From IMG/VR virus record IMGVR_UViG_2775506815_000003, positions 1 to 64,000 of that record: 64,000 nt of DNA; one strand, written 5' to 3'. Below are positions 1-60,662 of the stretch, in pieces. The stretch comes from an uncultured virus (IMG/VR IMGVR_UViG_2775506815_000003) (Duplodnaviria; Heunggongvirae; Uroviricota; Caudoviricetes). Position 1 is the first letter of the stretch. The number at the start of each line of letters is the position of its first letter. Both the position numbers and the translations under genes were made by a program. The notes under the pieces are model-generated. The model was given only the letters and a program-made list of their open reading frames with translations. It did no database searches and was not told the DNA's origin.

Positions 1-1638
1 TTACTTTTTTCTAGAATCAGCTCCAAACATGACAATATTTATATCTTCTCCGTCCCATATGATTTTATCTACTACGGATCTTATTAAATTTCTTTTCTGA
101 ATTACATCTGAGGTATCTATCATATTAGCAAATTTAATTATTATATCATCAACGATATCTATATTATCTTCTTTAATATTATTAGATTCCCTTTTTTCTT
201 CTAATTCGAATAATCTTTCTTTTAAATTTGAATTCTTTTTATCCAGCTCATTAATTTGAACAATTATATATTTAGTAGCATTAGATTCTTGACCTTCTGA
301 TAAAGAACCTACTAAATTGGCTATGGCTTTATCATTATCATCTATATTGGCCTTTATTTCCTTTATTTCAGCGTCCAAACTGATTTTAGCACTACTTATA
401 CTAACCTTGTCCTTTTCTATCTTTCTGGAAAGGGTAGAGCCTTTATAGGATAGTTTTTTAATCTCATCTATGACAAGCTGGTCTAAATCATTACCTTTTA
501 TATTTTTTATATCACATTTTTCTCTTTTACTCTTTTCTTTCAGCTCACATATATAATAAAAAGCTTGAACACCGTCCTTATTAACACGTCCCATTTTTGG
601 TCGCATAAAACTACCACAATTACCGCACCTTAATATACCAGATAAAAGCGATTCTGAATTTTTAACTTTCCTGAAAGTTTTAGATTTATTCTTATTAATC
701 ATATTTTGCACCCTCACCCAATCTTTTCCTCTTATTATTCCTGGATGTTTGCCTACGGCTATAATCCATTCTGAGTTATCTCTTAGCCTATTTGTAGTAT
801 TTTTCTTTTGTACAGTCTTATTATATGCCATGATACCTTTTTTACCTGTAAACTTATTTGAATCAGCATATACCTCATAATCATTATCAATGAAGTAGTT
901 ATATGTATTTTCATCAGCTGTAGCATATACAGGATTAGTTAAAATAGATCTTAGTGAAAATCTAGTATAATTTTTGTTGTTTTTAGTTTTAATATTATTT
1001 TGTATACAAAATGTTTCTAACTGAGTTAATGAATCCAATTCTAAGAACTTCTCATATATTAGTTTCACAGTTTTTATCTCCTGAGCTATAGGAGTAAGCT
1101 TAAATAATTTTCTTTTTTTTGCATTATGATCTAGATAGACAATCTCCTGAGAATCGAAGCCAGTAGGAGTAGTTCCACCAAGCCATCTGCCAGTTTTGGC
1201 TAATTGCAGCATATTATCTCTAATCCTTTCTGCTATAGTCTCTCTTTCTAGTTGAGCAAATACACTGGCTATGTACATCATTGCACGACCCATAGGAGTG
1301 GATGTATCAAATTGTTCCTTAATAGATACAAAAGATATATCATTCTCATGAAGATCTTCTATAAGAGTAGAGAAGTCAGCTATGTTCCTACTGATTCTAT
1401 CCAGTCTATAGCATATTAATACATTAAATTTCTTAGCCTTAACATCACGCATCATAAGCTTAAACTGTGGTCTATCGGTATTACCACCTGAAAACCCTTC
1501 ATCTTCATATATGGTAATGTCATCATCAGTAGAATTAAAATGTCCATAAACATACTCTTTACATAATTGTATTTGATTTTCTATAGAATCACCACGAGTT
1601 GTGAATTTCGATTTACGAGAATAAATTGCTATTTTCAT
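1..1638 (-). CDS. Large serine recombinase (SpoIVCA-like integrase of element 1)
   Basis: AIYSRKS catalytic Ser, DEGFSGG, YRLDRISR, recombinase domain, LSGILRCGNCG zinc ribbon, coiled coil. Confidence 0.95.
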   Translation of the reverse strand: MKIAIYSRKSKFTTRGDSIENQIQLCKEYVYGHFNSTDDDITIYEDEGFSGGNTDRPQFKLMMRDVKAKKFNVLICYRLDRISRNIADFSTLIEDLHENDISFVSIKEQFDTSTPMGRAMMYIASVFAQLERETIAERIRDNMLQLAKTGRWLGGTTPTGFDSQEIVYLDHNAKKRKLFKLTPIAQEIKTVKLIYEKFLELDSLTQLETFCIQNNIKTKNNKNYTRFSLRSILTNPVYATADENTYNYFIDNDYEVYADSNKFTGKKGIMAYNKTVQKKNTTNRLRDNSEWIIAVGKHPGIIRGKDWVRVQNMINKNKSKTFRKVKNSESLLSGILRCGNCGSFMRPKMGRVNKDGVQAFYYICELKEKSKREKCDIKNIKGNDLDQLVIDEIKKLSYKGSTLSRKIEKDKVSISSAKISLDAEIKEIKANIDDNDKAIANLVGSLSEGQESNATKYIIVQINELDKKNSNLKERLFELEEKRESNNIKEDNIDIVDDIIIKFANMIDTSDVIQKRNLIRSVVDKIIWDGEDINIVMFGADSRKK

Positions 1639-1640
1639 TG

Positions 1641-1685
1641 AATCACCCCATTGGTATTTATATGTTTATTATATTGGAAAGTATG
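1641..1685 (-). promoter_or_regulatory. Putative sigmaE promoter and RBS of recombinase 1
   Basis: Minus strand TCATA-17 nt-CATATAAAT then GGGGTGA RBS; 38/39 identical to 58540-58578. Confidence 0.65.
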
Positions 1686-2039: not shown

Positions 2040-2606
2040 GTGCTTAAAGATAAGGATATTAGGACAATTTTGATAAAAGAAATCACTAAATCAAATCGAG
2101 GTAACGATTATAGACTTGTAGAAGAACTAGCTGTATGCGATGGAGATGCAAGGGTTGATATTGCTTTAATAAATGGCAAATTATGCGGATATGAAATAAA
2201 AAGTGATAGAGATACCTTGGGAAGATTACCTAAACAAGTTAAAGCATATAATAGAACGTTCGATATCATGACTATTGTTGTTGGTGAAAAGTATAGAGAA
2301 ATGATAGAAGAAAAAGTTCCAAGCTGGTGGGGAATAAAAGTTGCCTACAAAGATAATAGTAATAAAGTATATATTGAAAATATTAGGCCTGCATCTTTTA
2401 ATGATGACGTTGATGCTCGTTCTGTTCTGGAATTATTGTGGAGAGATGAAATTTTAGAGTTGTTAAAAAATAAAGGAATAAGAGGGCTATCTAATAAGAA
2501 TAGAAGAATGCTAAGAGATATAGCCATTGAAACTATACCTCCTAGCGAGATAAAAGAATATACAAGAGAAATTTTAAAGATTAGAGAAGACTGGAGAGCT
2601 GATTAA
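2040..2606 (+). CDS. sce7726-family protein (PD-(D/E)XK-like)
   Basis: EELAV..ARVDIA..GYEIKSDRDTLGRL..Q motif. Confidence 0.75.
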   Translation: MLKDKDIRTILIKEITKSNRGNDYRLVEELAVCDGDARVDIALINGKLCGYEIKSDRDTLGRLPKQVKAYNRTFDIMTIVVGEKYREMIEEKVPSWWGIKVAYKDNSNKVYIENIRPASFNDDVDARSVLELLWRDEILELLKNKGIRGLSNKNRRMLRDIAIETIPPSEIKEYTREILKIREDWRAD

Positions 2607-3585
2607 CTACAAAAGTTATATGATGATTGGTCCCAACTTTTCTCCAAGTAGATAAATTTCCGCACTTTTCAATTCCTTTAGAACATCTAGTGAAAATATA
2701 GTTATCACCCCAGGAAAAATCTTGTCCACTAAAATCTTTGAGATTTATTAATTTTTGGCAAAGAGAAACTACATTTTCTACATCTAGGCCACCTTTTTTC
2801 GTGGAATCTCCTCTGATAACAATAAATGAATCATTAGTTGAGTACCTAATGTTAAAGGCTGGGCTCATTCCAGGAATATATTCAAAAAAGCTAGGGTGGT
2901 TAATGCAATAATCAGAGTATTTCAGCTTAATATTATATCGCTTTTCCAAATAAAGCAATGAACTCCACAGTTGGTAGTCATAACGGCTAATGTGATGAAT
3001 CTCATATTTTCCGAAAGAGCTTAATGTTTTAGGAAAAGCACTACTTGATAAAATAATATTTCTAAAAGATTGTATTTCAGGTATGTCTGGTAGTAAGGCT
3101 TTTGCAACAATCTTTTTTTCTCCAAAATTATTTTCGTTAATTTCTCTTAAATCTATTATTAAGTCAATGTTGTTATAGCCGAACTCATCCTTTAGTTCCA
3201 TCAAACTACTGTCTAAATCATCTAAATCATCGCTGGTTATTCTAATTGCTATACCATTTTTTGAGTAATTATTAGCCTCTTTTATTGCATCTTTATTATC
3301 TGACAAGAATACTACTGGAATTACATATTTGGGGTCACATTGGCTTAGCAAATCAAAATATATTTCTCCACTATTTTCTTCATAAACTTCTGGTAAAATA
3401 TCAAAATAAAAATATCTGTTCTTCCAATTATTTAAAGAATCTTTGAGCTTAGAAAAATTAAAATCGGGCGTTATTTCTATTAATGGAACTATTTTATCTT
3501 TTATAGAATCTTCCAGTTCTTTTAAAGCTCCTTGTTCTCCTTGTTTCCATTTAAGAATAGGAATATAAGTAAAATTTGTTTTCAT
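2581..3585 (-). CDS. Beta-family / sce7725-like protein
   Basis: YIPILKWKQGE N-terminus, YSDY, IRYS, FSWGD, WRKVGTNHH C-terminus. Confidence 0.75.
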   Translation of the reverse strand: MKTNFTYIPILKWKQGEQGALKELEDSIKDKIVPLIEITPDFNFSKLKDSLNNWKNRYFYFDILPEVYEENSGEIYFDLLSQCDPKYVIPVVFLSDNKDAIKEANNYSKNGIAIRITSDDLDDLDSSLMELKDEFGYNNIDLIIDLREINENNFGEKKIVAKALLPDIPEIQSFRNIILSSSAFPKTLSSFGKYEIHHISRYDYQLWSSLLYLEKRYNIKLKYSDYCINHPSFFEYIPGMSPAFNIRYSTNDSFIVIRGDSTKKGGLDVENVVSLCQKLINLKDFSGQDFSWGDNYIFTRCSKGIEKCGNLSTWRKVGTNHHITFVVNQLSSLL

Positions 3586-3720
3586 AGTAATCCCCCTTAA
3601 GAAAATAATTATAAGTAATAGTTGACAATATAAACGATAATTAAAAATTTAATATAAACATATTTAATCATCTCCTTAATTTGATTTACTTAATATATAA
3701 GAAAAGCAATGGAGATAAAA

Positions 3721-3736
3721 GCTACCCAAAGGTAGC
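3721..3736 (-). terminator. Hairpin terminator
   Basis: GCTACC-caaa-GGTAGC followed by T run on minus strand. Confidence 0.5.
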
Positions 3737-3737
3737 T

Positions 3738-4187
3738 TTATATCCCTAATGCTTCTTTAGACTTAGATCCAAGAATACCATCTACAGTAAGTTTGTTATC
3801 CTTTTGGAACTTTTTAAGAGCTTCCTTACTTTTCTTTCCCATGATTCCATCAGCTTTACCGCAGTCATAACCTAACTCATTAAGCTTTTCCTGAGCTTTC
3901 TTTATATCTTCAGATTTAGTAGAACTGGAGCTTTTCTTTGATGATGTAGTAGGTTTTTTAGTAGAAGTTTTACTACTATAAGGACAAACTCCGTCTTTAT
4001 GTAAGTGTGCAGTATTTCCACCACAGTGGTAGTGATAGCTACCTAATCCACTTTTATTCTTATTGTCCTTATGCCCACCGCTAGAATCTGTTCTACCTGG
4101 ATGACCTATAACAATAGTAGAACTAAGCGATAAAGCGACTGCTAGTCCTAATGAAGCAATCTTTTTTGATGAAAATTTCTTTTTCAT
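3738..4187 (-). CDS. Secreted YHYH-motif protein with peptidoglycan-binding domain
   Basis: Signal peptide, HPGRTD..GGH..YHYHCGG, C-terminal ADGIMG..FQKDNKLTVDG. Confidence 0.85.
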   Translation of the reverse strand: MKKKFSSKKIASLGLAVALSLSSTIVIGHPGRTDSSGGHKDNKNKSGLGSYHYHCGGNTAHLHKDGVCPYSSKTSTKKPTTSSKKSSSSTKSEDIKKAQEKLNELGYDCGKADGIMGKKSKEALKKFQKDNKLTVDGILGSKSKEALGI

Positions 4188-5905
4188 TTGAAATTCCTCC
4201 TTTGTATTTTAAATAATTTATTTGTTATCCATGAACCAAGTTTAAAAGAAACAATTGCTATAAAAAATAGTAAAAGAAGACCGATAAATGCATTATCTAC
4301 TTTTATTGCTATGAAAAGCGATAATACAGCCCACAAAAAGAATGATATTGTTATTTTTAAAATAGGAAATGATATATTTAATTTTTTTTCTGAAGTGAGA
4401 TTTGTTTTTGTATAGCTAAGATCGTTTATATAATCAAAATAATGTAAGGAACCTATATCTTCTTTATTAATTAATACCTTTCTCGGTTTACTACCTTCAT
4501 ATCCGCCTACAATGCCTCTATCTTCCATTTCATCAACAATTCTTGCTGCCCTTGCATATCCAATCTTTAGCTTTCTTTGCAACAGCGAAATAGAAGCCTG
4601 TCCTTCTTCTATTACTAGATAAATTGCTTTTGGCAATAATTCATCTACATCATAAATAATATTTTCAACTTCAACTTCGTTTTGAATGTTTTCTACAATA
4701 TTATTTTCATGTTTATTTATAAAATGGTTTACTACTTTTTTAATTTCTTCATTACTAATAAAAGCTCCTTGGATTCTTATTGGCTTTAATTCTTTCATAG
4801 AATAGAATAACATATCGCCTTCATTTAAAAGTTTTTCAGCTCCAGCTGTATCAAGTATTATTCTAGAATCGGATTGAGAAAATACCCTAAAAGATATCCT
4901 TGAAGGAAAGCTATTTTTAAAAACATTTGCGATAGAGGGTATTTGTGTAGTTACTATTAAATAAATTCCTGCAGCTCTTGCCATTTGTGCTAACCTACAA
5001 ATGCAATTTTCAATCTCTTGAGCAGATACCATCATCAAATCAGCTAATTCATCTATAATGATAACTATCTTGGACAACTTTTCTTCCTCATTATTTTTAA
5101 ATTTTTCATTATAGGAAGTTATATCCCTTACATTGTTTTTTGTAAATAGTTTATATCTATTTTCCATTTCAGCAATAGCCCAATTAAGAGCGGAAACAGC
5201 TTTTTTTGGTTCAGTAACTACTGGTATTAATAAGTTAGGGATTCCATTATAAATACTCAATTCAACTACTTTAGTATCTATAAGTAAAAGTTTTACATCA
5301 TCTTGAGTAGGTCTATATAAAATACTAGTTATTAAAGCATGAATACAAATGCTTTTTCCAGTTCCAGTTGATCCAGCTATAAGAAGATGTGGCATTTCAT
5401 CTATACTTTTAATAATTATTTTTCCATTAGTGCTTTTTCCTAATACTAGAGGTATTTCAAAATTAGTATTTTTATATTCATCAGAGTTTAATATATCATG
5501 TAAAAAAACTAATTTTCTATCATAATTTTCAGAGTTACATGTAGTATCTAATGATAGCGTTATCATTTTTATTAATATATCCCTGTCCCATAATTCAACA
5601 TTATTTGCTTCAGATAGTTCTATAGCATTGGGAGTAAAATAATTATTTGTAACTACCATACATTTATTAGCCCGATAATAATTTTTTGCACCAATAATTT
5701 CTTGTATGGCGGAAATGCCTACAGTATTGCTATATCTTTTGGCCTGGATAACTGTTCTATCCTTATCCTTTGAAATAATTAAGTCTGCTCCATAGTCATT
5801 AGAGGCTGGGGTAATTTCTACTTCATATCCTAAATTTTTAAAAAGATTAAATAAATAATTTTCAAATTCTATACCAGATAGATTATCTATACATAGTTCA
5901 TCCAT
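4184..5905 (-). CDS. Mrr-like endonuclease fused to FtsK/SpoIIIE ATPase, gamma domain and C-terminal TM helices
   Basis: EFE..DYGADL..IQAKRY; PHLLIAGSTGTGKS; IIIDELADLM; SISLLQRKLKIGYARAAR; hydrophobic tail. Confidence 0.85.
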   Translation of the reverse strand: MDELCIDNLSGIEFENYLFNLFKNLGYEVEITPASNDYGADLIISKDKDRTVIQAKRYSNTVGISAIQEIIGAKNYYRANKCMVVTNNYFTPNAIELSEANNVELWDRDILIKMITLSLDTTCNSENYDRKLVFLHDILNSDEYKNTNFEIPLVLGKSTNGKIIIKSIDEMPHLLIAGSTGTGKSICIHALITSILYRPTQDDVKLLLIDTKVVELSIYNGIPNLLIPVVTEPKKAVSALNWAIAEMENRYKLFTKNNVRDITSYNEKFKNNEEEKLSKIVIIIDELADLMMVSAQEIENCICRLAQMARAAGIYLIVTTQIPSIANVFKNSFPSRISFRVFSQSDSRIILDTAGAEKLLNEGDMLFYSMKELKPIRIQGAFISNEEIKKVVNHFINKHENNIVENIQNEVEVENIIYDVDELLPKAIYLVIEEGQASISLLQRKLKIGYARAARIVDEMEDRGIVGGYEGSKPRKVLINKEDIGSLHYFDYINDLSYTKTNLTSEKKLNISFPILKITISFFLWAVLSLFIAIKVDNAFIGLLLLFFIAIVSFKLGSWITNKLFKIQRRNFK

Positions 5906-6715: not shown

Positions 6716-7198
6716 TTAATTGCTTTTACTATTATTATCATTATTATTTAATAGTTCTTGTATTTTAATATGTTTGGCTATTATTTCAGCTAGTTCCTCA
6801 TATGTTTTGTTCTCGTAATTAAACCCTTTATTAATCATTACTTGTCTAAATTCATCTAAGGCTTTATATTCTTTTTGAAACTCTTTTTTCAGTTTTTCTT
6901 CTTGCTTGTAAGTATTTCTTATACTAGAGTTTTCTAAGTTTTTTTTGTTAAATTCTGATTCAATATCTTCATCTTTTATATATCCTGCAGCTTTCATAAA
7001 GTCTGTGTAAGTTACATTATTTTTAGCAGTACTAGCTAATCCTTTTAATATTTCTGGGGAAGGAGGATTATCCATTTTGTTATTTAGTAATTTAGATATA
7101 TAAGTTCTGTTAACTCCACTTAGTTTGGAGTATTCAGTAGTGTTTAAGTCCCCCATAGCCTGTAATAATAATTCTTTAAAAAGTTCTTTGTCAAACAT
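6716..7198 (-). CDS. CI-like XRE HTH repressor
   Basis: N-terminal HTH (SGVNRTYISKLLN..PSPEILKGLA), divergent from cro; no S24 peptidase domain. Confidence 0.8.
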   Translation of the reverse strand: MFDKELFKELLLQAMGDLNTTEYSKLSGVNRTYISKLLNNKMDNPPSPEILKGLASTAKNNVTYTDFMKAAGYIKDEDIESEFNKKNLENSSIRNTYKQEEKLKKEFQKEYKALDEFRQVMINKGFNYENKTYEELAEIIAKHIKIQELLNNNDNNSKSN

Positions 7199-7232: not shown

Positions 7233-7347
7233 CGTGAAAATATTCAACACATCACTACGTAAAATCTTTTCACGCAATTCCGTGAAAATAGTTGACAGCA
7301 TTAAAATCGAATGATATTATGTATATACAGGGTGAAAAAAGTTAACA
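7233..7347. promoter_or_regulatory. Lysis/lysogeny switch: 17-bp operators and early promoter
   Basis: cGTGAAAA.....ACa-type boxes at 7233, 7258 (inverted), 7281, 7331; TTGACA(7292)-17-TATTAT(7315). Confidence 0.8.
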
Positions 7348-7361
7348 AAAGGAGGATGATT

Positions 7362-7625
7362 ATGATACCAAATATAGAAAAATTGCAACAACTTGTTGAT
7401 AAAAAGTTTAATGGAAACAAGTCGGCTTTTGCTAAAGCTATTGGGATTGAAAGGTCACACATATCTCATATATTAAAAGATGGAACTGGGGCAGGTGCAA
7501 TGTTTTTTGGAGCATTGATGCAGTATTGTGAGAAAGAAAATTTAAAATTTAAAGATTATATTTTTCTACCAACAAATGTGAATAAAATTAACGATAGAAA
7601 CCAAGGTAACAACCATACAGCCTAA
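7362..7625 (+). CDS. Cro-like HTH regulator
   Basis: FAKAIGIERSHISHIL HTH; AGGAGG RBS supports start at 7362. Confidence 0.75.
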   Translation: MIPNIEKLQQLVDKKFNGNKSAFAKAIGIERSHISHILKDGTGAGAMFFGALMQYCEKENLKFKDYIFLPTNVNKINDRNQGNNHTA

Positions 7626-7746
7626 TAATTATCTCACATAAGTAGATTCAAAAAAAGAAGTAAATATTGGAAGGAGTAAGATAGGTGGAAGAATACTACC
7701 TTATAGCTTTCATACAAAATTGTGTAAAACACGCAGTAACCAAGTA

Positions 7747-7775
7747 ATAGGACAAATTAATTAATTCATATAAAT
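7747..7775 (+). promoter_or_regulatory. Putative sigmaE promoter with SpoIIID-like site
   Basis: ATA-17-CATATAAAT (same -10 as both recombinases); TAGGACAAA overlapping the -35. Confidence 0.55.
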
Positions 7776-7797
7776 ATTATGAAAGGAGTGGGGAGTT

Positions 7798-7977
7798 TTG
7801 AATATTACAGTTCACTTACCAACAACTAAAGAAGGATGGCAAATGCTAAACGAAAGAATGGCAGAGATACATTCAGAATTTATAATAAACCAAATAAACA
7901 ATCTCCCCTGTAGTTATGAAGAGAAGTTAGAAATCTTAGAAGGGGTTAAGAAGAGAGTAGAGGAGGAGGGAGTGTGA
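7798..7977 (+). CDS. 59-aa protein, candidate recombination directionality factor
   Basis: MNITVHLPTTKEGWQMLNERMAEIH...; AAAGGAG RBS, TTG start; function inferred from promoter. Confidence 0.6.
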   Translation: MNITVHLPTTKEGWQMLNERMAEIHSEFIINQINNLPCSYEEKLEILEGVKKRVEEEGV

Positions 7978-8252
7978 TGGATAAAACAATGATAGTGAGT
8001 AATTTAGAAATTCTTAGCAATTATATTAAAAAGGATATTGAACATACAAATACGAGTATAGAGCATTGGAAAAAGCGTGTTGAAGAAATTGGAGAGGGTA
8101 CTATAGCATTTCCAATTGAAAATGAAACCTATGGAGAAACATTAGATAGAAGTATAGAGAATAAAAAGTATCTTATGAAACTCCTTGAGGATAACAACAA
8201 TTTGATAAATACGTTAAGGAAAGGAGAGAAAGGAAGAGATGAAACAGATTAG
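7974..8252 (+). CDS. Hypothetical phage protein
   Basis: ORF with RBS in early operon. Confidence 0.6.
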   Translation: MMDKTMIVSNLEILSNYIKKDIEHTNTSIEHWKKRVEEIGEGTIAFPIENETYGETLDRSIENKKYLMKLLEDNNNLINTLRKGEKGRDETD

Positions 8253-56348: not shown

Positions 56349-56834
56349 TTAAAAGATATTTTTATAAATTTCATAAAAATGAGAAGAATCATCTAATAAA
56401 TGACGAATATTTTTGTAATTTTGCCTTGCCGGAGGAGATTCTTCCTTCTCCCATCTAGAAATAGTTTTTCTATGAACATTTAATAAATCTCCTAATTTCT
56501 TTTGGGTTAAATTCAAATTCATTCTTATACTTATAATTTTATTACCATAATCACTACTAATAAAATTAAAATAATCATCATATACAATTGAAGGTTTTAC
56601 TTTAAGGGCTATACAAATTTTATTTATAATATCTATAGAATGCTCTACTAAATTATTTTCATATCTAATTATAGTAGCTCTATCTAAATTGGATTTAGTG
56701 GCTAATTCTTCTTGAGTAAAATTATTAAGTAGTCTATAATATTTGATACGAGAGCCTATAGTAGATAAATCAGAAATACCCTTTAATAAATTTTGATTGT
56801 GATTAAATGTTTCCGTAGTGATACTATTGCCAAT
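56349..56834 (-). CDS. Start-less double XRE-HTH reading frame running into the att site
   Basis: IGSRIKYYRLLNNFTQEELA..DRATIIRYE and LTQKKLG..HRKTISRWE; no ATG/GTG/TTG before first HTH. Confidence 0.75.
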   Translation of the reverse strand: MGNSITTETFNHNQNLLKGISDLSTIGSRIKYYRLLNNFTQEELATKSNLDRATIIRYENNLVEHSIDIINKICIALKVKPSIVYDDYFNFISSDYGNKIISIRMNLNLTQKKLGDLLNVHRKTISRWEKEESPPARQNYKNIRHLLDDSSHFYEIYKNIF

Positions 56835-56852
56835 GAAATATTGATGACTATA
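56814..56852. other. attR-like site of element 1 (crossover GA at 56835-56836)
   Basis: AATGA core; TAGTGAT/ATGACTA inverted arms 12 and 7 nt from centre. Confidence 0.65.
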
Positions 56853-56924
56853 AGGGCTAATAAAAAATCCAAAATAGAGGTATCATTACAAGAGCCTATA
56901 GGAGTAGATAAAGAAGGCAATGAA
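56832..56924 (+). CDS. sigK: Internal fragment of pro-sigmaK (split gene segment)
   Basis: NEILMTIRANKKSKIEVSLQEPIGVDKEGNE matches SigK region 2.4-3 (PIGxDKEGNE; SigE has PLNIDWDGNE); similarity stops at both AATGA. Confidence 0.9.
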
Positions 56925-56946
56925 TTACCCTTAACGGTTTATCTAT
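56904..56946. other. attL-like site of element 2 (crossover GA at 56922-56923)
   Basis: AAT-GA-ATT core; TAGATAAA/TTTATCTA arms 9 and 14 nt from centre. Confidence 0.75.
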
Positions 56947-56989
56947 CTTCAAGGGTACATATTGAAAAATACATAAGTATAGGGTTTGT

Positions 56990-58537
56990 CTATTTAGGCA
57001 GCTTTGGAAACAAAGTTAGAGTAAATTGGTCATTTCTTTGCTCTTTTTCTTTTTCATATACGGCAGAATCTAATACAGACTTAAGTAGTTTATTTTTCCT
57101 TTCTGGATCATCAGTCTTAGGGTATAGGTCCAATACCTTTTTTACCTTAGGAATTATATTTCGTTGAGCATCAATTCTTTTTTCTTCATTTTTTATATTT
57201 TTAGAAGTATTCTCTATGTTGAATTTAGTGTCATCAATCCTTTGAGCTAATAACTGTGACCTTTCTAAATAAGTATTTACATCATAAATTCCTCTTTCAA
57301 GTAAATCGTGTAAATTGTTTTTCTGCTTTTCTAATTCTTCTAATTCATTTTTTAGTCTGCTTAGGGAAAGTTTATGCATTCTTAAAGTATTGTTTGCTTT
57401 AGATTTATTTTCCTTGTCTTCTACATTGTCCCATTCAGCTTTATATTCTTCTAGCCATTCCTCTAGTCCTTTGAGAAGTCTTTGTTCTACAAACTTAAAC
57501 TTAGAACTTTTATTGTTACAACTAGTGTTATAACAGACTATATGAGGGTCTATATTGTTGGTATATGGTCTATACACCATAGAAGAACCACATTTTGAAC
57601 AAATGATAATACCAGCCAAAGGATTAGTTATTTTAGTTTTATATGGCACATGGCTTCTCTTTTTAAGGATTTCTTGAGCTTTATCAAATATATCATTACT
57701 TATTAATGGTTCATGTTTACCTTTTACACTTATCCATTCTTCACGGGGTAAACTTTTTACTTCTTTTATTTGTTCAGGATTATCAGATTTTTTATATACT
57801 TTCTTTCTCCATTGAATCTTTCCAACATATACTTCATTCTTAATGATATTTAGGACCAAGTGACTGGACCAGTTTTTTCCCGTGTATGTTTTATACCCTA
57901 GCTCGTTCAATTTATTAGCAATTTTACCGCCGCCCATGTTGTGGTTTGCATATAAATCAAATATCATTTTAACAATAGGTGCTTGTTCTGGATGTGGAGT
58001 TAGAGTTCTGGTTTTCCCTTCACAGACGATTTCATATCCAAAGGGAGGTAATGGTCCTAAAAAGTTTCCATCTTCTATAGAACGAACTCTGCCACGTTGT
58101 AAACGTCTATTTATTATTTTTAATTCCTTCCTAGCCATAAAAGCTTCAAACTCAGAATATTCTTCGTCAAATTCATCTTGAAGGTCATAAGTTTTTCTAG
58201 GAGTAATAATTTTTGTGTTAGATTCTTTGAAAGTTTCTAGTATTAAACCTTGCTCCTGCATATTGCCACGACCTAATCTATCCATGTCCATTACTAGAAC
58301 TGCATCGTATTCTTTATTCTTGACTTCTTTTAGTAATTCAAGCATTTCAGGTCTATGAACTAAACTCTCCCCAGAAACTATTTCTTCACGAATCCTTAAT
58401 ATATTAAGGCCTTTCTCCTTGGCCACTTTAAGCAATATTTTTTTATGTTTAGCTAAAGTTTCACCTTCACCATACTTTTCAGCTTCTTCATCAGCCCTAG
58501 ACTTACGAAGATACATGCAAATACGATCCATAGTCAT
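56990..58537 (-). CDS. Large serine recombinase of element 2
   Basis: MYLRKSR, EEIVSGE, DMDRLGRG, LAGIIICSKCG, coiled coil; intact 515 aa. Confidence 0.95.
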   Translation of the reverse strand: MTMDRICMYLRKSRADEEAEKYGEGETLAKHKKILLKVAKEKGLNILRIREEIVSGESLVHRPEMLELLKEVKNKEYDAVLVMDMDRLGRGNMQEQGLILETFKESNTKIITPRKTYDLQDEFDEEYSEFEAFMARKELKIINRRLQRGRVRSIEDGNFLGPLPPFGYEIVCEGKTRTLTPHPEQAPIVKMIFDLYANHNMGGGKIANKLNELGYKTYTGKNWSSHLVLNIIKNEVYVGKIQWRKKVYKKSDNPEQIKEVKSLPREEWISVKGKHEPLISNDIFDKAQEILKKRSHVPYKTKITNPLAGIIICSKCGSSMVYRPYTNNIDPHIVCYNTSCNNKSSKFKFVEQRLLKGLEEWLEEYKAEWDNVEDKENKSKANNTLRMHKLSLSRLKNELEELEKQKNNLHDLLERGIYDVNTYLERSQLLAQRIDDTKFNIENTSKNIKNEEKRIDAQRNIIPKVKKVLDLYPKTDDPERKNKLLKSVLDSAVYEKEKEQRNDQFTLTLFPKLPK

Positions 58538-58539
58538 AA

Positions 58540-58582
58540 AATCACCTCATTGGTATTTATATGTTTATTATATTGGAATATT
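58540..58582 (-). promoter_or_regulatory. Putative sigmaE-type promoter and RBS of recombinase 2
   Basis: 38/39 identical to 1641-1679; CATATAAAT -10, GAGGTGA RBS. Confidence 0.6.
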
Positions 58583-59404: not shown

Positions 59405-60662
59405 CTATGCCACAGAAATATCCGTATCTTTTATAATACCATTAGAGATTAATAGTTTTATAGCTTGATTAAGGGCTTTCTCTTTTTGTTTATTCATTAA
59501 TTCTTGTGGCATATCAATTTTATATAGATCAGAAGGATTCCATACTTCCTCTGTTACAAACATATTATAAATAGCAGTTAGTATCATCCTCGCTATAACG
59601 ATAATTGCTCTCTTTTTTCCTCTCCTTTTGTAAATGCATTCATATTTATTTTTGTAGTAAGGAGATTTGTCCGATTTAACGGCAGTATGGGCAACTTGTA
59701 CCAATGCTGGTTTGAGGTAAACTCCAGCACGTGTAATTCGAACAGATTTCTTCTTACCAGCAGATTCATTGTTGCCTGGTGTTAAACCAACCCGGCAACA
59801 CAAACGCTTAGAGCTGGAAAATTGAGACATACCAATACCAATCTCAGAAATAATAGTGATAGCTGAGTCCCTTTTGACCCCGGGAATGGTACATAAAATA
59901 TTTACATGATTTTCATAGGGCATAATCATCTTATTTAAATTTTCATCAATCTCTGCAATTGATGAAGTGACATAATTAAGATGTGATCTAACCATTAATA
60001 TGCGTTCTTTTTGTTCTTGTGTCATTTGGTAACCTTCAATAGATTCAATTACTAGATCTGCTTTTTTCTTTAAGCTTTTTTGTAAAAGTGAAGTACAATA
60101 GTCTGGGTTAAATGAATCTGAAGAAATTAGATAGTCTGTGATGGAAGTGGCAGATTTGCCAAACATGTCGGAAACGACAGCATCAAAGGCTACATTACCA
60201 ACAGTGAAAGCATTTTGAAATCTATTTTTTTCACTACTTCTACAAGAAACAAGTTTTGAACGATGACGAGTATATTCACGAAGAATACTAATTGGCTTAC
60301 TGGGGATATAAACTTCCAGATACTAAACCTAAACGAAACAGATCACCAATCCATTTAGAATCTTTGACATCATCCTTATTACCTTTTATTGCTTTAACCC
60401 ATTTAGGGTTAGCAATGGTTACGTTGATAGTGTCCTCTAAAATGTTAAAAACAGGTATCCAATACTTTCCTGTAGATTCCATGTATACATCATAGCAGTT
60501 GTTATCAATAAGCCATTGCTTAAATTGTAAGATGGAATTATTAAAAGTAGAGAATCTCTTTTTTGAATAATGTGGGGTAATCCCCTGTGAAATGATGATT
60601 GTGGCAACGAGAAAAGTTTTATGCACATCGACACCACAACAAATAGGATAAACAACTTTCAT
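59405..60662 (-). pseudogene. IS110-family transposase, frameshifted near 60300
   Basis: GVDVHK, MESTG.YW, K.D..D; TIPGV, GLTP..ESAG; one-base shift joins the two ORFs. Confidence 0.9.

Follow-up and report, generated by a model that had tools for sequence, protein, structure and literature searches.

How does a prophage that sits inside the host gene sigK leave it again at the right time and in the right cell? The question is raised by a 64,000-nucleotide (nt) stretch of DNA from an uncultured virus of the Caudoviricetes (IMG/VR record IMGVR_UViG_2775506815_000003, positions 1 to 64,000), here called the window, which corresponds to G000:C14:378964-442963 in the host genome. The window opens with the gene of a large serine recombinase (LSR1) and carries, 6.2 kilobases (kb) away and divergent from it, an open reading frame (ORF) of 59 amino acids (aa), ORF59. 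The answer that we hold with good confidence is that ORF59 encodes the recombination directionality factor (RDF) of LSR1, expressed from a mother-cell promoter of the sigma-E type with a putative SpoIIID box and probably also read from the early operon of the prophage. We favor this reading because of the linkage of ORF59 to LSR1 and sigK, the purifying selection on ORF59 and the conservation of its promoter. An earlier note on this DNA had proposed a candidate RDF under a mother-cell-type promoter; the proposal is supported for LSR1, by linkage, minimal elements and the conserved motif, and falls for the recombinase of a second element (LSR2) in the same gene.

A search with the TIGR02846 model located sigK in three pieces, all on contig C14. 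The pieces and the attachment-site cores are as follows.

C14:378641-378946, directly left of the window: sigK piece 1, the 5' part (TIGR02846)
56817-56954 (C14 435780-435917): sigK piece 2, a TIGR02846 match to model positions 106-151
56836..56924, + strand: middle fragment of sigK, about 90 base pairs (bp), separating the two elements (TIGR02846 match, translation)
C14:462414-462683, past the window end: sigK piece 3 (TIGR02846)
56832..56835, + strand: attR core AATG of the prophage (element A), from junction comparison; in-silico excision restores the sigK frame
56919..56924, + strand: attL core AATGAA of element B, from junction comparison and in-silico excision

Pieces 1 and 2 are separated by element A, a 56.9-kb prophage with recombinase LSR1, and pieces 2 and 3 by element B, about 26.5 kb long, with recombinase LSR2. 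Element A is a complete-looking prophage of the siphovirus type, inserted at the site CIEN|EILM. LSR1 borders piece 1: some 30 nt separate its 3' end from attL, where the 5' piece joins, just left of the window. LSR2 borders piece 2. The junctions give a core AATG for element A, with attB ..GAAAATG|AAATATTG.., and a core AATGAA for element B, with attB ..GGCAATGAA|ATATCA..; imperfect inverted repeats flank the junctions of each element, on the element's own side. When the three pieces were joined by script at these cores, an open frame of 225 aa resulted, identical to a relative's uninterrupted sigK at 191 of 226 positions with one gap. Since the rejoined pieces form an open sigK frame, both elements must leave for sigma-K to be produced. 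As judged by titles and the beginnings of abstracts, we found no description in the literature of a sigK gene split by two elements.

Both attB cores lie within one 10-base string, AATGAAATAT, and N-E-I is encoded at both sites, about 90 bp apart. The genome has one N within the first codons of sigK piece 1 (L001 about 11680, C14 about 378647), which is translated as X.

ORF59, the two recombinase genes and their upstream signals are located as follows.

7798..7977, + strand: ORF59, candidate RDF, 59 aa, TTG start at 7798, TGA stop at 7975-7977
7783..7788, + strand: ribosome-binding site AAGGAG; homologues have GGAGG-type sites at the equivalent place
7747..7775, + strand: predicted mother-cell-type promoter, with -35 ATA at 7747-7749, a 17-nt spacer and -10 CATATAAAT at 7767-7775
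7748-7756, + strand: G[G/T]ACA box TAGGACAAA, overlapping the -35 and the spacer
1..1638, - strand: LSR1, large serine recombinase, 545 aa (Pfam Resolvase, Recombinase and Zn_ribbon_recom)
1639..1684, - strand: conserved region upstream of LSR1, TCATA-17-CATATAAAT with an overlapping TATAAT, near-identical to the region upstream of LSR2
56990..58537, - strand: LSR2, large serine recombinase of element B, 515 aa (Pfam); orthologues abut the same sigK site
58538..58580, - strand: region upstream of LSR2, with CCAATATAATAAACATATAAATACCAATG common to it and LSR1

Is ORF59 a genuine gene? At E <= 0.01, 19 proteins belong with it, itself included; the other 18 are 58-67 aa long and 74-91% identical, and only one of these close homologues has a named source, Keratinibaculum paraultunense, where it is listed as a hypothetical protein. 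When a profile built from the 19 was run against 1.84 billion proteins, 282 cluster representatives matched at E <= 1e-3, nearly all of them 52-120 aa long; ten of the clusters were looked up, and two carried a source name ('hypothetical' or 'uncharacterized' protein), the others none. Against seven close homologues the ratio of non-synonymous to synonymous substitution rates (dN/dS) is 0.09-0.24 in six pairs, the seventh being saturated, and ORF59 is, on this codon measure, under purifying selection. It has no Pfam match at E <= 0.01 and no significant match among PHROGs, where the best (E 0.029) is to a family without assigned function. The family profile found nothing meaningful among PDB sequences, and a search of the ESM Atlas gave only unnamed clusters with scores under 0.9. 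No homologue turned up in deposited phages by tblastn at E <= 0.01, the best integrases of which are 44-46% identical to LSR1; scans with the alignment of close homologues found no relative in a viral contig collection and one real locus in a genome contig collection. By these searches the family is new in sequence: it is without relatives in Pfam, PHROGs or the PDB, and none of the records examined gives it a functional name. Public runs include one metatranscriptome with a 211-nt near-identical contig over 7866-8076, a contig that shows no start, strand or level, and a waste metagenome with diverged pieces of the region, contigs that are no evidence of expression or excision.

An AlphaFold2 model from a 121-sequence alignment has a mean predicted confidence (pLDDT) of 95.5 and consists of an extended N-terminus (residues 1-10), a helix (11-34), a conserved loop LPCSY and a second helix (40-58), a predicted two-helix hairpin. 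Foldseek of this model against the PDB returned nothing at E <= 1e-3, and VIA-align wide returned only generic helical hairpins (Z <= 5.7).

The neighborhood of ORF59 was compared in two samples. The first comprised 401 genomes of the same order, 11 of which have an ORF59 match (9 of them solid); 8 loci were fetched. The second comprised 400 genomes of the class, 22 of which match a wider ORF59 profile; 20 loci were fetched. Seven of the eight order loci have the ORF59 homologue at a distance of 0.2-7.8 kb from, and in divergent orientation to, an LSR1 orthologue (58-79% identical) whose 3' end borders sigK piece 1. There is no conservation of the repressor, of cro or ORF92, or of most other early genes. 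In the reverse direction, all nine solid ORF59-positive genomes of the order have an LSR1 orthologue at least 59% identical. The class loci include a sigK piece in 19 of 20 cases, the exception being a 1.9-kb contig, and an LSR1-family gene (46-60% identity) in 14, or 16 after two loci were extended. The element occurs there in either orientation within sigK, and the small gene is either divergent from the recombinase or directly upstream of it in an operon (7/20: L048-L050 and L052-L055). Over all 28 loci, a sigK piece is present in 26 and an LSR1-family gene in 23, the small gene and the recombinase being carried by the same element; of the five loci lacking the recombinase, four are contig ends (L037, L042, L045, L051) and one is an orphan (L030). 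The earlier note had pointed to co-occurrence with large serine recombinases as a check, and it was found with the LSR1 family, in these 23 of 28 loci, and with LSR2 in none.

How little else need accompany the pair is seen in the smallest elements. One is 6.2 kb long (L023); two are 3.2 kb (L027 and L039), the former made up of the recombinase, the ORF59 homologue and a dehydrogenase; another, of 2.6 kb (L028), is essentially recombinase plus ORF59 homologue; and two of about 1.6 kb (L053, L055) hold these two genes and little or nothing else. The pairing is also met outside sigK: 120-220 nt from LSR1-like genes there (46-51% identical), and divergent from them, lies a small gene that matches weakly (E 4e-5 to 7e-3) and is preceded by the same promoter motif. 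Loci of LSR1-like genes outside sigK are L064-L066, L069 and L076-L078, and L072, L073 and L075; some LSR1-like recombinases with an ORF59-like neighbor abut fragments of a gene for an ATP-binding cassette (ABC)-transporter ATPase, and others, with no ORF59-like neighbor found, lie against pieces of a subtilisin-like protease gene.

The promoter described by the earlier note, ATA-17-CATATAAAT with an overlapping TAGGACAAA ahead of a 59-aa ORF, can be read directly at 7747-7775, with the ORF at 7798-7977. Its statement that both recombinases have the same -10 is likewise borne out, with CATATAAAT lying 17-18 nt ahead of the ATG of LSR1 (1664-1656, -) and of LSR2 (58563-58555, -). The LSR1 and LSR2 upstream regions are near-identical over about 40 nt, and the two proteins are only about 22% identical. 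The sigma factor for the LSR1 upstream region is ambiguous, the -35 not being conserved among orthologues. In the 3.57-Mb genome, both strands counted, ATA-N17-CATATAAAT occurs four times, twice within the window. There are 12 instances of the composite in which a [GT][GT]ACA[AG] box opens the spacer of ATA-N17-CATA, the ORF59 copy being the sole one ahead of a ribosome-binding site and start codon; this genome-wide search revealed no further members of a regulon. A looser pattern, GGACAA-N-ATA, has 49 matches in the genome, mostly intragenic.

The box alone is not enriched in the window (eight matches to TAGKACAA against 6.2 expected), and a simple sigma-70 scan of the window did not call the site; the real support for the promoter comes from its conservation in relatives. 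Upstream of the nine closest ORF59 homologues, the only sequence that aligns is ATAGGACAA[A/T]-N10-[C/A]ATAT[A/T][A/T]AT, present in all nine at 20-25 nt before the start. Over the wider family, a regular expression for ATA-N17-[C/A]ATA with a [G/T/A][G/T]AC[A/G] box at the start of the spacer matches 17 of 29 upstream regions, or 18 when L056 is read by eye (the script picked a wrong start there and the motif is visible). Shuffles of the same 29 regions gave a mean of 0.06 matches and a maximum of two.

Does LSR2 have a partner of its own? Orthologues of LSR2 (61-75% identity) were found in five genomes, all abutting sigK piece 2. One further gene is conserved beside them and no other: it is homologous to a 76-aa ORF that element B carries at L002:12976-13206 (window coordinate 68975-69205 and thus outside the window). 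Two LSR2 mini-elements (L031, L035) are about 2.2-2.4 kb long in their entirety. The regions upstream of the LSR2-partner genes contain ATAGTACAA[A/T]C-N9-CATAAAtT, that is, ATA-17-CATA, in five of six loci. In this genome the promoter of the LSR2 partner has an AGTACAA box and its -10 reads AATAAAAAT, with an A instead of the relatives' C at the first base; excision of element B may be impaired by this A-for-C change and by insertions of the IS110 and IS3 types.

Could the motif ahead of ORF59 be something other than a sigma-E-type promoter with a SpoIIID box? It seems unlikely to us that ORF59 is an RDF and ATA-G[G/T]ACA-N-CATA a sigma-K or sigma-A promoter, an extended -35 recognized directly by the sigma factor or the site of some other host factor. 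Such an explanation is encouraged by the recombinase genes, where the same CATATAAAT overlaps TATAAT, and by the position of the box, about 6 nt nearer the -10 in the ORF59 promoter than in the sigK promoters. A promoter for sigma-K only, however, would deadlock, sigma-K not being made before excision, and the box has its AC 13 nt away from the -10, against the 16-17 nt expected for sigma-K. Considering that this spacing misfits sigma-K and that sigma-K is absent before excision, the ORF59 promoter is best read, from its sequence, as sigma-E-type. A -35 ATA and a CATA-type -10 at a spacing of 16-18 nt make up the sigma-E signature, which ATA-17-CATATAAAT has; the consensus is that of C. difficile, in which sigma-E promoters have ATA at -35 and sigma-K promoters have AC, both with a CATA-type -10 (PMC3789822; for this and the other papers cited, we rely on the parts of the text accessible to us). 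The box is common to two unrelated partner families and to the host sigK promoters, which also argues against the alternative. In the latter (L001:11500-11660 and 28 related loci), a common (A)TAGGACTnGCAC-N17-CATATAAT architecture is found in 21 of 29 by regular expression (G[GT]AC-N3-5-CA-N15-19-[C/A]ATA; shuffle mean 0.09), and its G[GT]AC box is shared with ORF59, the partner gene. We take TAGGACAAA to fit the B. subtilis-type SpoIIID box (WWRRACAR-Y / GGACAA), and a spoIIID gene is present in this genome. From that consensus and from the box in the sigK promoters we infer that the G[G/T]ACA box is a SpoIIID site. Against this it must be said that the argument is indirect, that KRTAACARK, the SpoIIID consensus of C. 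difficile (PMC5025042), is not the same as this box, and that the spoIIID promoter of this genome has no clear copy of the motif; in C. difficile one SpoIIID motif was reported for CD1234, sigK and spoIIID (PMC5025042).

What, then, of the relatives that do not fit? Several of them weigh against ORF59 as the RDF of LSR1. The closest LSR1 orthologue (83% identical) lies in sigK in a 96% complete assembly (G079) that has no ORF59-family match anywhere; between the cro-like gene and the homologue of ORF92, the gene that follows ORF59 in the window, the motif occurs twice there, before a 43-aa ORF and before the ORF92 homologue. No ORF59 match was found in G129 and G043, with recombinases 52-54% identical beside a sigK piece, or in G270, with a partial recombinase at a contig end beside a sigK piece. 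In G074, a 2.1-kb element in sigK (L061, G074:C21) holds the recombinase only, without an ORF59 homologue, and the sole good ORF59 copy is on another contig (L030, G074:C2:12841-13014), with its motif intact; from -12.8 to +27 kb around it there is neither a recombinase nor a sigK piece. The motif is absent or partial in 11-12 of the 29 upstream regions, mainly those of genes directly upstream of the recombinase in an operon. The predicted two-helix hairpin is not diagnostic of function. Finally, the linkage counts come from related genomes, which are not independent, and the genes of one mobile element are linked by descent. Perhaps another small protein took the place of ORF59 in G079, and the unlinked homologue in G074 may be an RDF that acts in trans, or a remnant.

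If ORF59 were instead a small early phage protein of another function (a regulator, an anti-repressor or a modulator of phage development in the mother cell), accompanying the recombinase merely as part of a shared conserved module, with LSR1 excising without it or with a different factor, the absence of ORF59 homologues from G079, G129 and G043 and the other small ORFs behind the motif in G079 would need no special explanation. Some serine recombinases, such as TnpX, are bidirectional without an RDF. We nevertheless regard this as improbable: in the sigK elements of 1.6-3.2 kb the ORF59 homologue is the recombinase's only conserved partner, with no phage left to regulate, and the pairing outlasts changes of orientation and gene order (divergent and operon) and extends to LSR1-like genes at non-sigK targets. 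There is also the suggestion of the earlier note that ORF59 drives excision of possibly both elements, as a single factor for both recombinases. This would be attractive in that both elements must leave to rebuild sigK, that the approximately 40 nt upstream of LSR1 and LSR2 are so alike in this genome, and that the -10 of element B's own partner departs from that of its relatives. It did not survive the comparison and strikes us as highly improbable. Recombinases only about 22% identical would have to respond to the same factor, and among the genomes searched those with ORF59 homologues and those with close LSR2 orthologues do not overlap (an ORF59 match is missing from all five genomes whose LSR2 orthologues reach 61-75% identity, and an LSR2 orthologue from the ORF59 loci). 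Moreover, the LSR2 orthologues keep their own 76-aa partner, even in the 2.2-2.4-kb mini-elements, and when the ORF59 and LSR2-partner families were compared by hhalign, the probability was 3.3%, with no detectable homology. Since LSR2 keeps a partner of its own and there is no co-occurrence, ORF59 is, on this comparative evidence, very unlikely to serve LSR2.

How would ORF59 act as the RDF of LSR1? On its own, LSR1 would integrate the element (attP x attB) and would then be locked on attL and attR. In the mother cell, ORF59 would be made from its own sigma-E-type promoter, probably with the help of SpoIIID, and would bind LSR1 and thereby allow attL x attR excision. If solved RDFs are a guide, the two proteins would touch where the zinc-ribbon domain of LSR1 meets its coiled coil; on the ORF59 side, the analogy with SprB points to the C-terminal helix and the strand at the N-terminus as the likely contacts. 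The 76-aa partner would act likewise on LSR2 in the same cell, so that sigK is rebuilt, and the copy of the prophage in the forespore genome would stay integrated. A second route to ORF59 would be taken during lytic induction, from the early region laid out below.

6716..7198, - strand: gene of a cI-like helix-turn-helix (HTH) repressor, facing away from the early operon (HTH_3 and PHROG repressor matches, both weak)
7292..7320, + strand: candidate early rightward promoter of the sigma-70 type, TTGACA-17-TATTAT with TG (consensus scan 11/12; predicted only)
7311..7625, + strand: cro-like HTH gene, which heads the early operon (phrog_3642, HTH DNA-binding protein, E 2.7e-6); its true start is probably downstream of 7311
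7974..8252, + strand: ORF92, overlapping the ORF59 stop (GTGTGATG)

Here transcription from the early promoter (7292-7320) would pass through cro and reach ORF59, a parallel to sprB of SPbeta. ORF59 has the same orientation as cro and lies 172 nt behind it, with no + strand terminator predicted between the two, and read-through from the cro promoter is plausible from this arrangement. Because of the position in the early operon behind cro and the lack of a terminator, lytic expression of ORF59 is probable.

One close published parallel by description is the C. difficile skin element, whose 72-aa RDF CD1234 needs sigma-E and SpoIIID and is transcribed from a start 14 nt before the start codon (PMC5025042). 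As described there, CD1234 (with CD1231), like ORF59, is a small acidic protein encoded a few genes from a large serine recombinase in an element that intervenes in sigK; it has, like ORF59 as read here, a sigma-E-type promoter with a SpoIIID box and a very short leader, and it confines excision to the mother cell (PMC5025042). The two differ in the box, which overlaps the -35 of ORF59 and lies 46 bp upstream in CD1234, and in the element, since element A is a full prophage and ORF59 is also part of an early lytic operon. The comparison with CD1234 was by names only; no C. difficile-named protein is among the 120 listed of the 135 ORF59 profile matches.

A second parallel is prophage SPbeta, an active phage that splits the mother-cell gene spsM. 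Its 58-aa RDF SprB (YotN) serves the 545-aa integrase SprA, and sprB has both stress-inducible and mother-cell promoters (PMC6957869); SprB binds DBD2 and the proximal coiled coil of SprA (bioRxiv 10.1101/2025.01.03.631226). As far as the accessible text of these papers goes, the proposed ORF59/LSR1 pair resembles SprB/SprA in its tiny RDF, its 545-aa serine integrase, its split mother-cell gene and its dual control, and differs in the target, which is sigK rather than spsM. LSR1 is distantly related to SprA (E 3e-13), and the ORF59 profile has no SprB/YotN match at E <= 1 among PDB sequences, though these include the SprA-YotN fusion 9dxd.

Two further systems can be likened by description only. 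Skr, the 64-aa RDF of the B. subtilis skin element, is under sigma-E control and is encoded directly upstream of, and in an operon with, the SpoIVCA recombinase (PMC6957869). This is the layout of the seven operon loci of the class sample, in contrast to the distant and divergent genes of the window. GirX, a 42-aa RDF, acts with the serine recombinase GirC in a minimal, non-phage gin element within gerE of B. cereus and is expressed in mid-sporulation (PMC5595907); that element is of the same kind as the 1.6-3.2-kb relatives with ORF59 homologues but has another target gene and belongs to another class, the Bacilli. Prophages in sigK are known as well: phage PhiS63 of C. perfringens (PMC3442830) and the site-A prophages of C. 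tetani (PMC5553647) are, like element A, inducible or complete prophages in that gene, and the accessible parts of these two papers describe no RDF.

Thus the kind of system is already known (CD1234, Skr, SprB, GirX), and so are complete phages in sigK. What is new is the sequence family, its wide link to one recombinase clade, a promoter grammar common to an unrelated partner family and to sigK, and a doubly interrupted sigK. To our knowledge, the RDFs of large serine recombinases have no common sequence or fold, and each was found by genetics or structure prediction. Here comparative genomics alone points to an RDF, one whose family numbers at least 282 sequence clusters. The two candidate orthogonal integrase-RDF pairs, with known attB cores, would be raw material for reversible genome-engineering tools. 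The findings would also extend the skin paradigm of C. difficile and B. subtilis to the order of the window and to other orders of the Clostridia, and the conserved promoter signature would be a route for mobile elements into the mother-cell program. As sigK is interrupted twice, sporulation depends on two excisions.

Could one go further? We offer as a tentative extension, short of what we would favor, that two unrelated recombinase/partner pairs, 90 bp apart in one gene, act as orthogonal locks and form an AND gate, each partner gene having independently gained the promoter grammar (ATA, G[G/T]ACA box, CATA) seen also at the host's sigK promoter, and that the ORF59 family is the general RDF of a widespread clade of Clostridia recombinases, with members at non-sigK targets and, in G074, an RDF gene that has moved off the element and works in trans as a host gene. 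If this were true, sigK would be under two independent locks: sigma-K could be made only after two excisions, orthogonal to each other but timed by a single signal of the mother cell, which amounts to a natural AND gate with two inputs.

The remainder of element A is organized as a complete prophage would be. LSR1 at the sigK end is followed by cargo genes; the middle holds the cI-like repressor and the divergent early operon with cro, ORF59, ORF92, HTH genes, Gp157/RecT, HNH and replication genes; and the late genes specify terminase, portal, capsid, tail, holin, endolysin and a methylase. The cargo at 2040-5905, between recombinase and repressor, includes two overlapping genes, PF14350 ('Beta protein') and phrog_984, as well as a peptidoglycan-binding protein and an Mrr-type nuclease domain fused to an FtsK/SpoIIIE ATPase; these are possibly defense or moron genes. 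Element B contains LSR2, genes of the IS110 and IS3 types, Sel1-repeat genes and phage-like early genes, with an IS110-family transposase gene in two frames and an IS3-type pair (window 59405-60662 (-); L002:5513-6668).

ORF92 is probably co-transcribed with ORF59 and, to judge from the motif before its homologue, may also be a mother-cell gene. At L060 the motif stands directly before an ORF92 homologue and before an unrelated 43-aa ORF, with ORF59 missing (L060:58-330 and L060:686-814, both -). Just ahead of ORF59, a GTG-started frame of 20 codons (stop included) with a good ribosome-binding site occupies 7686-7746 and stops immediately ahead of the promoter motif. Two relatives have a similar arrangement, the motif there coming straight after the stop codon of the upstream HTH gene.

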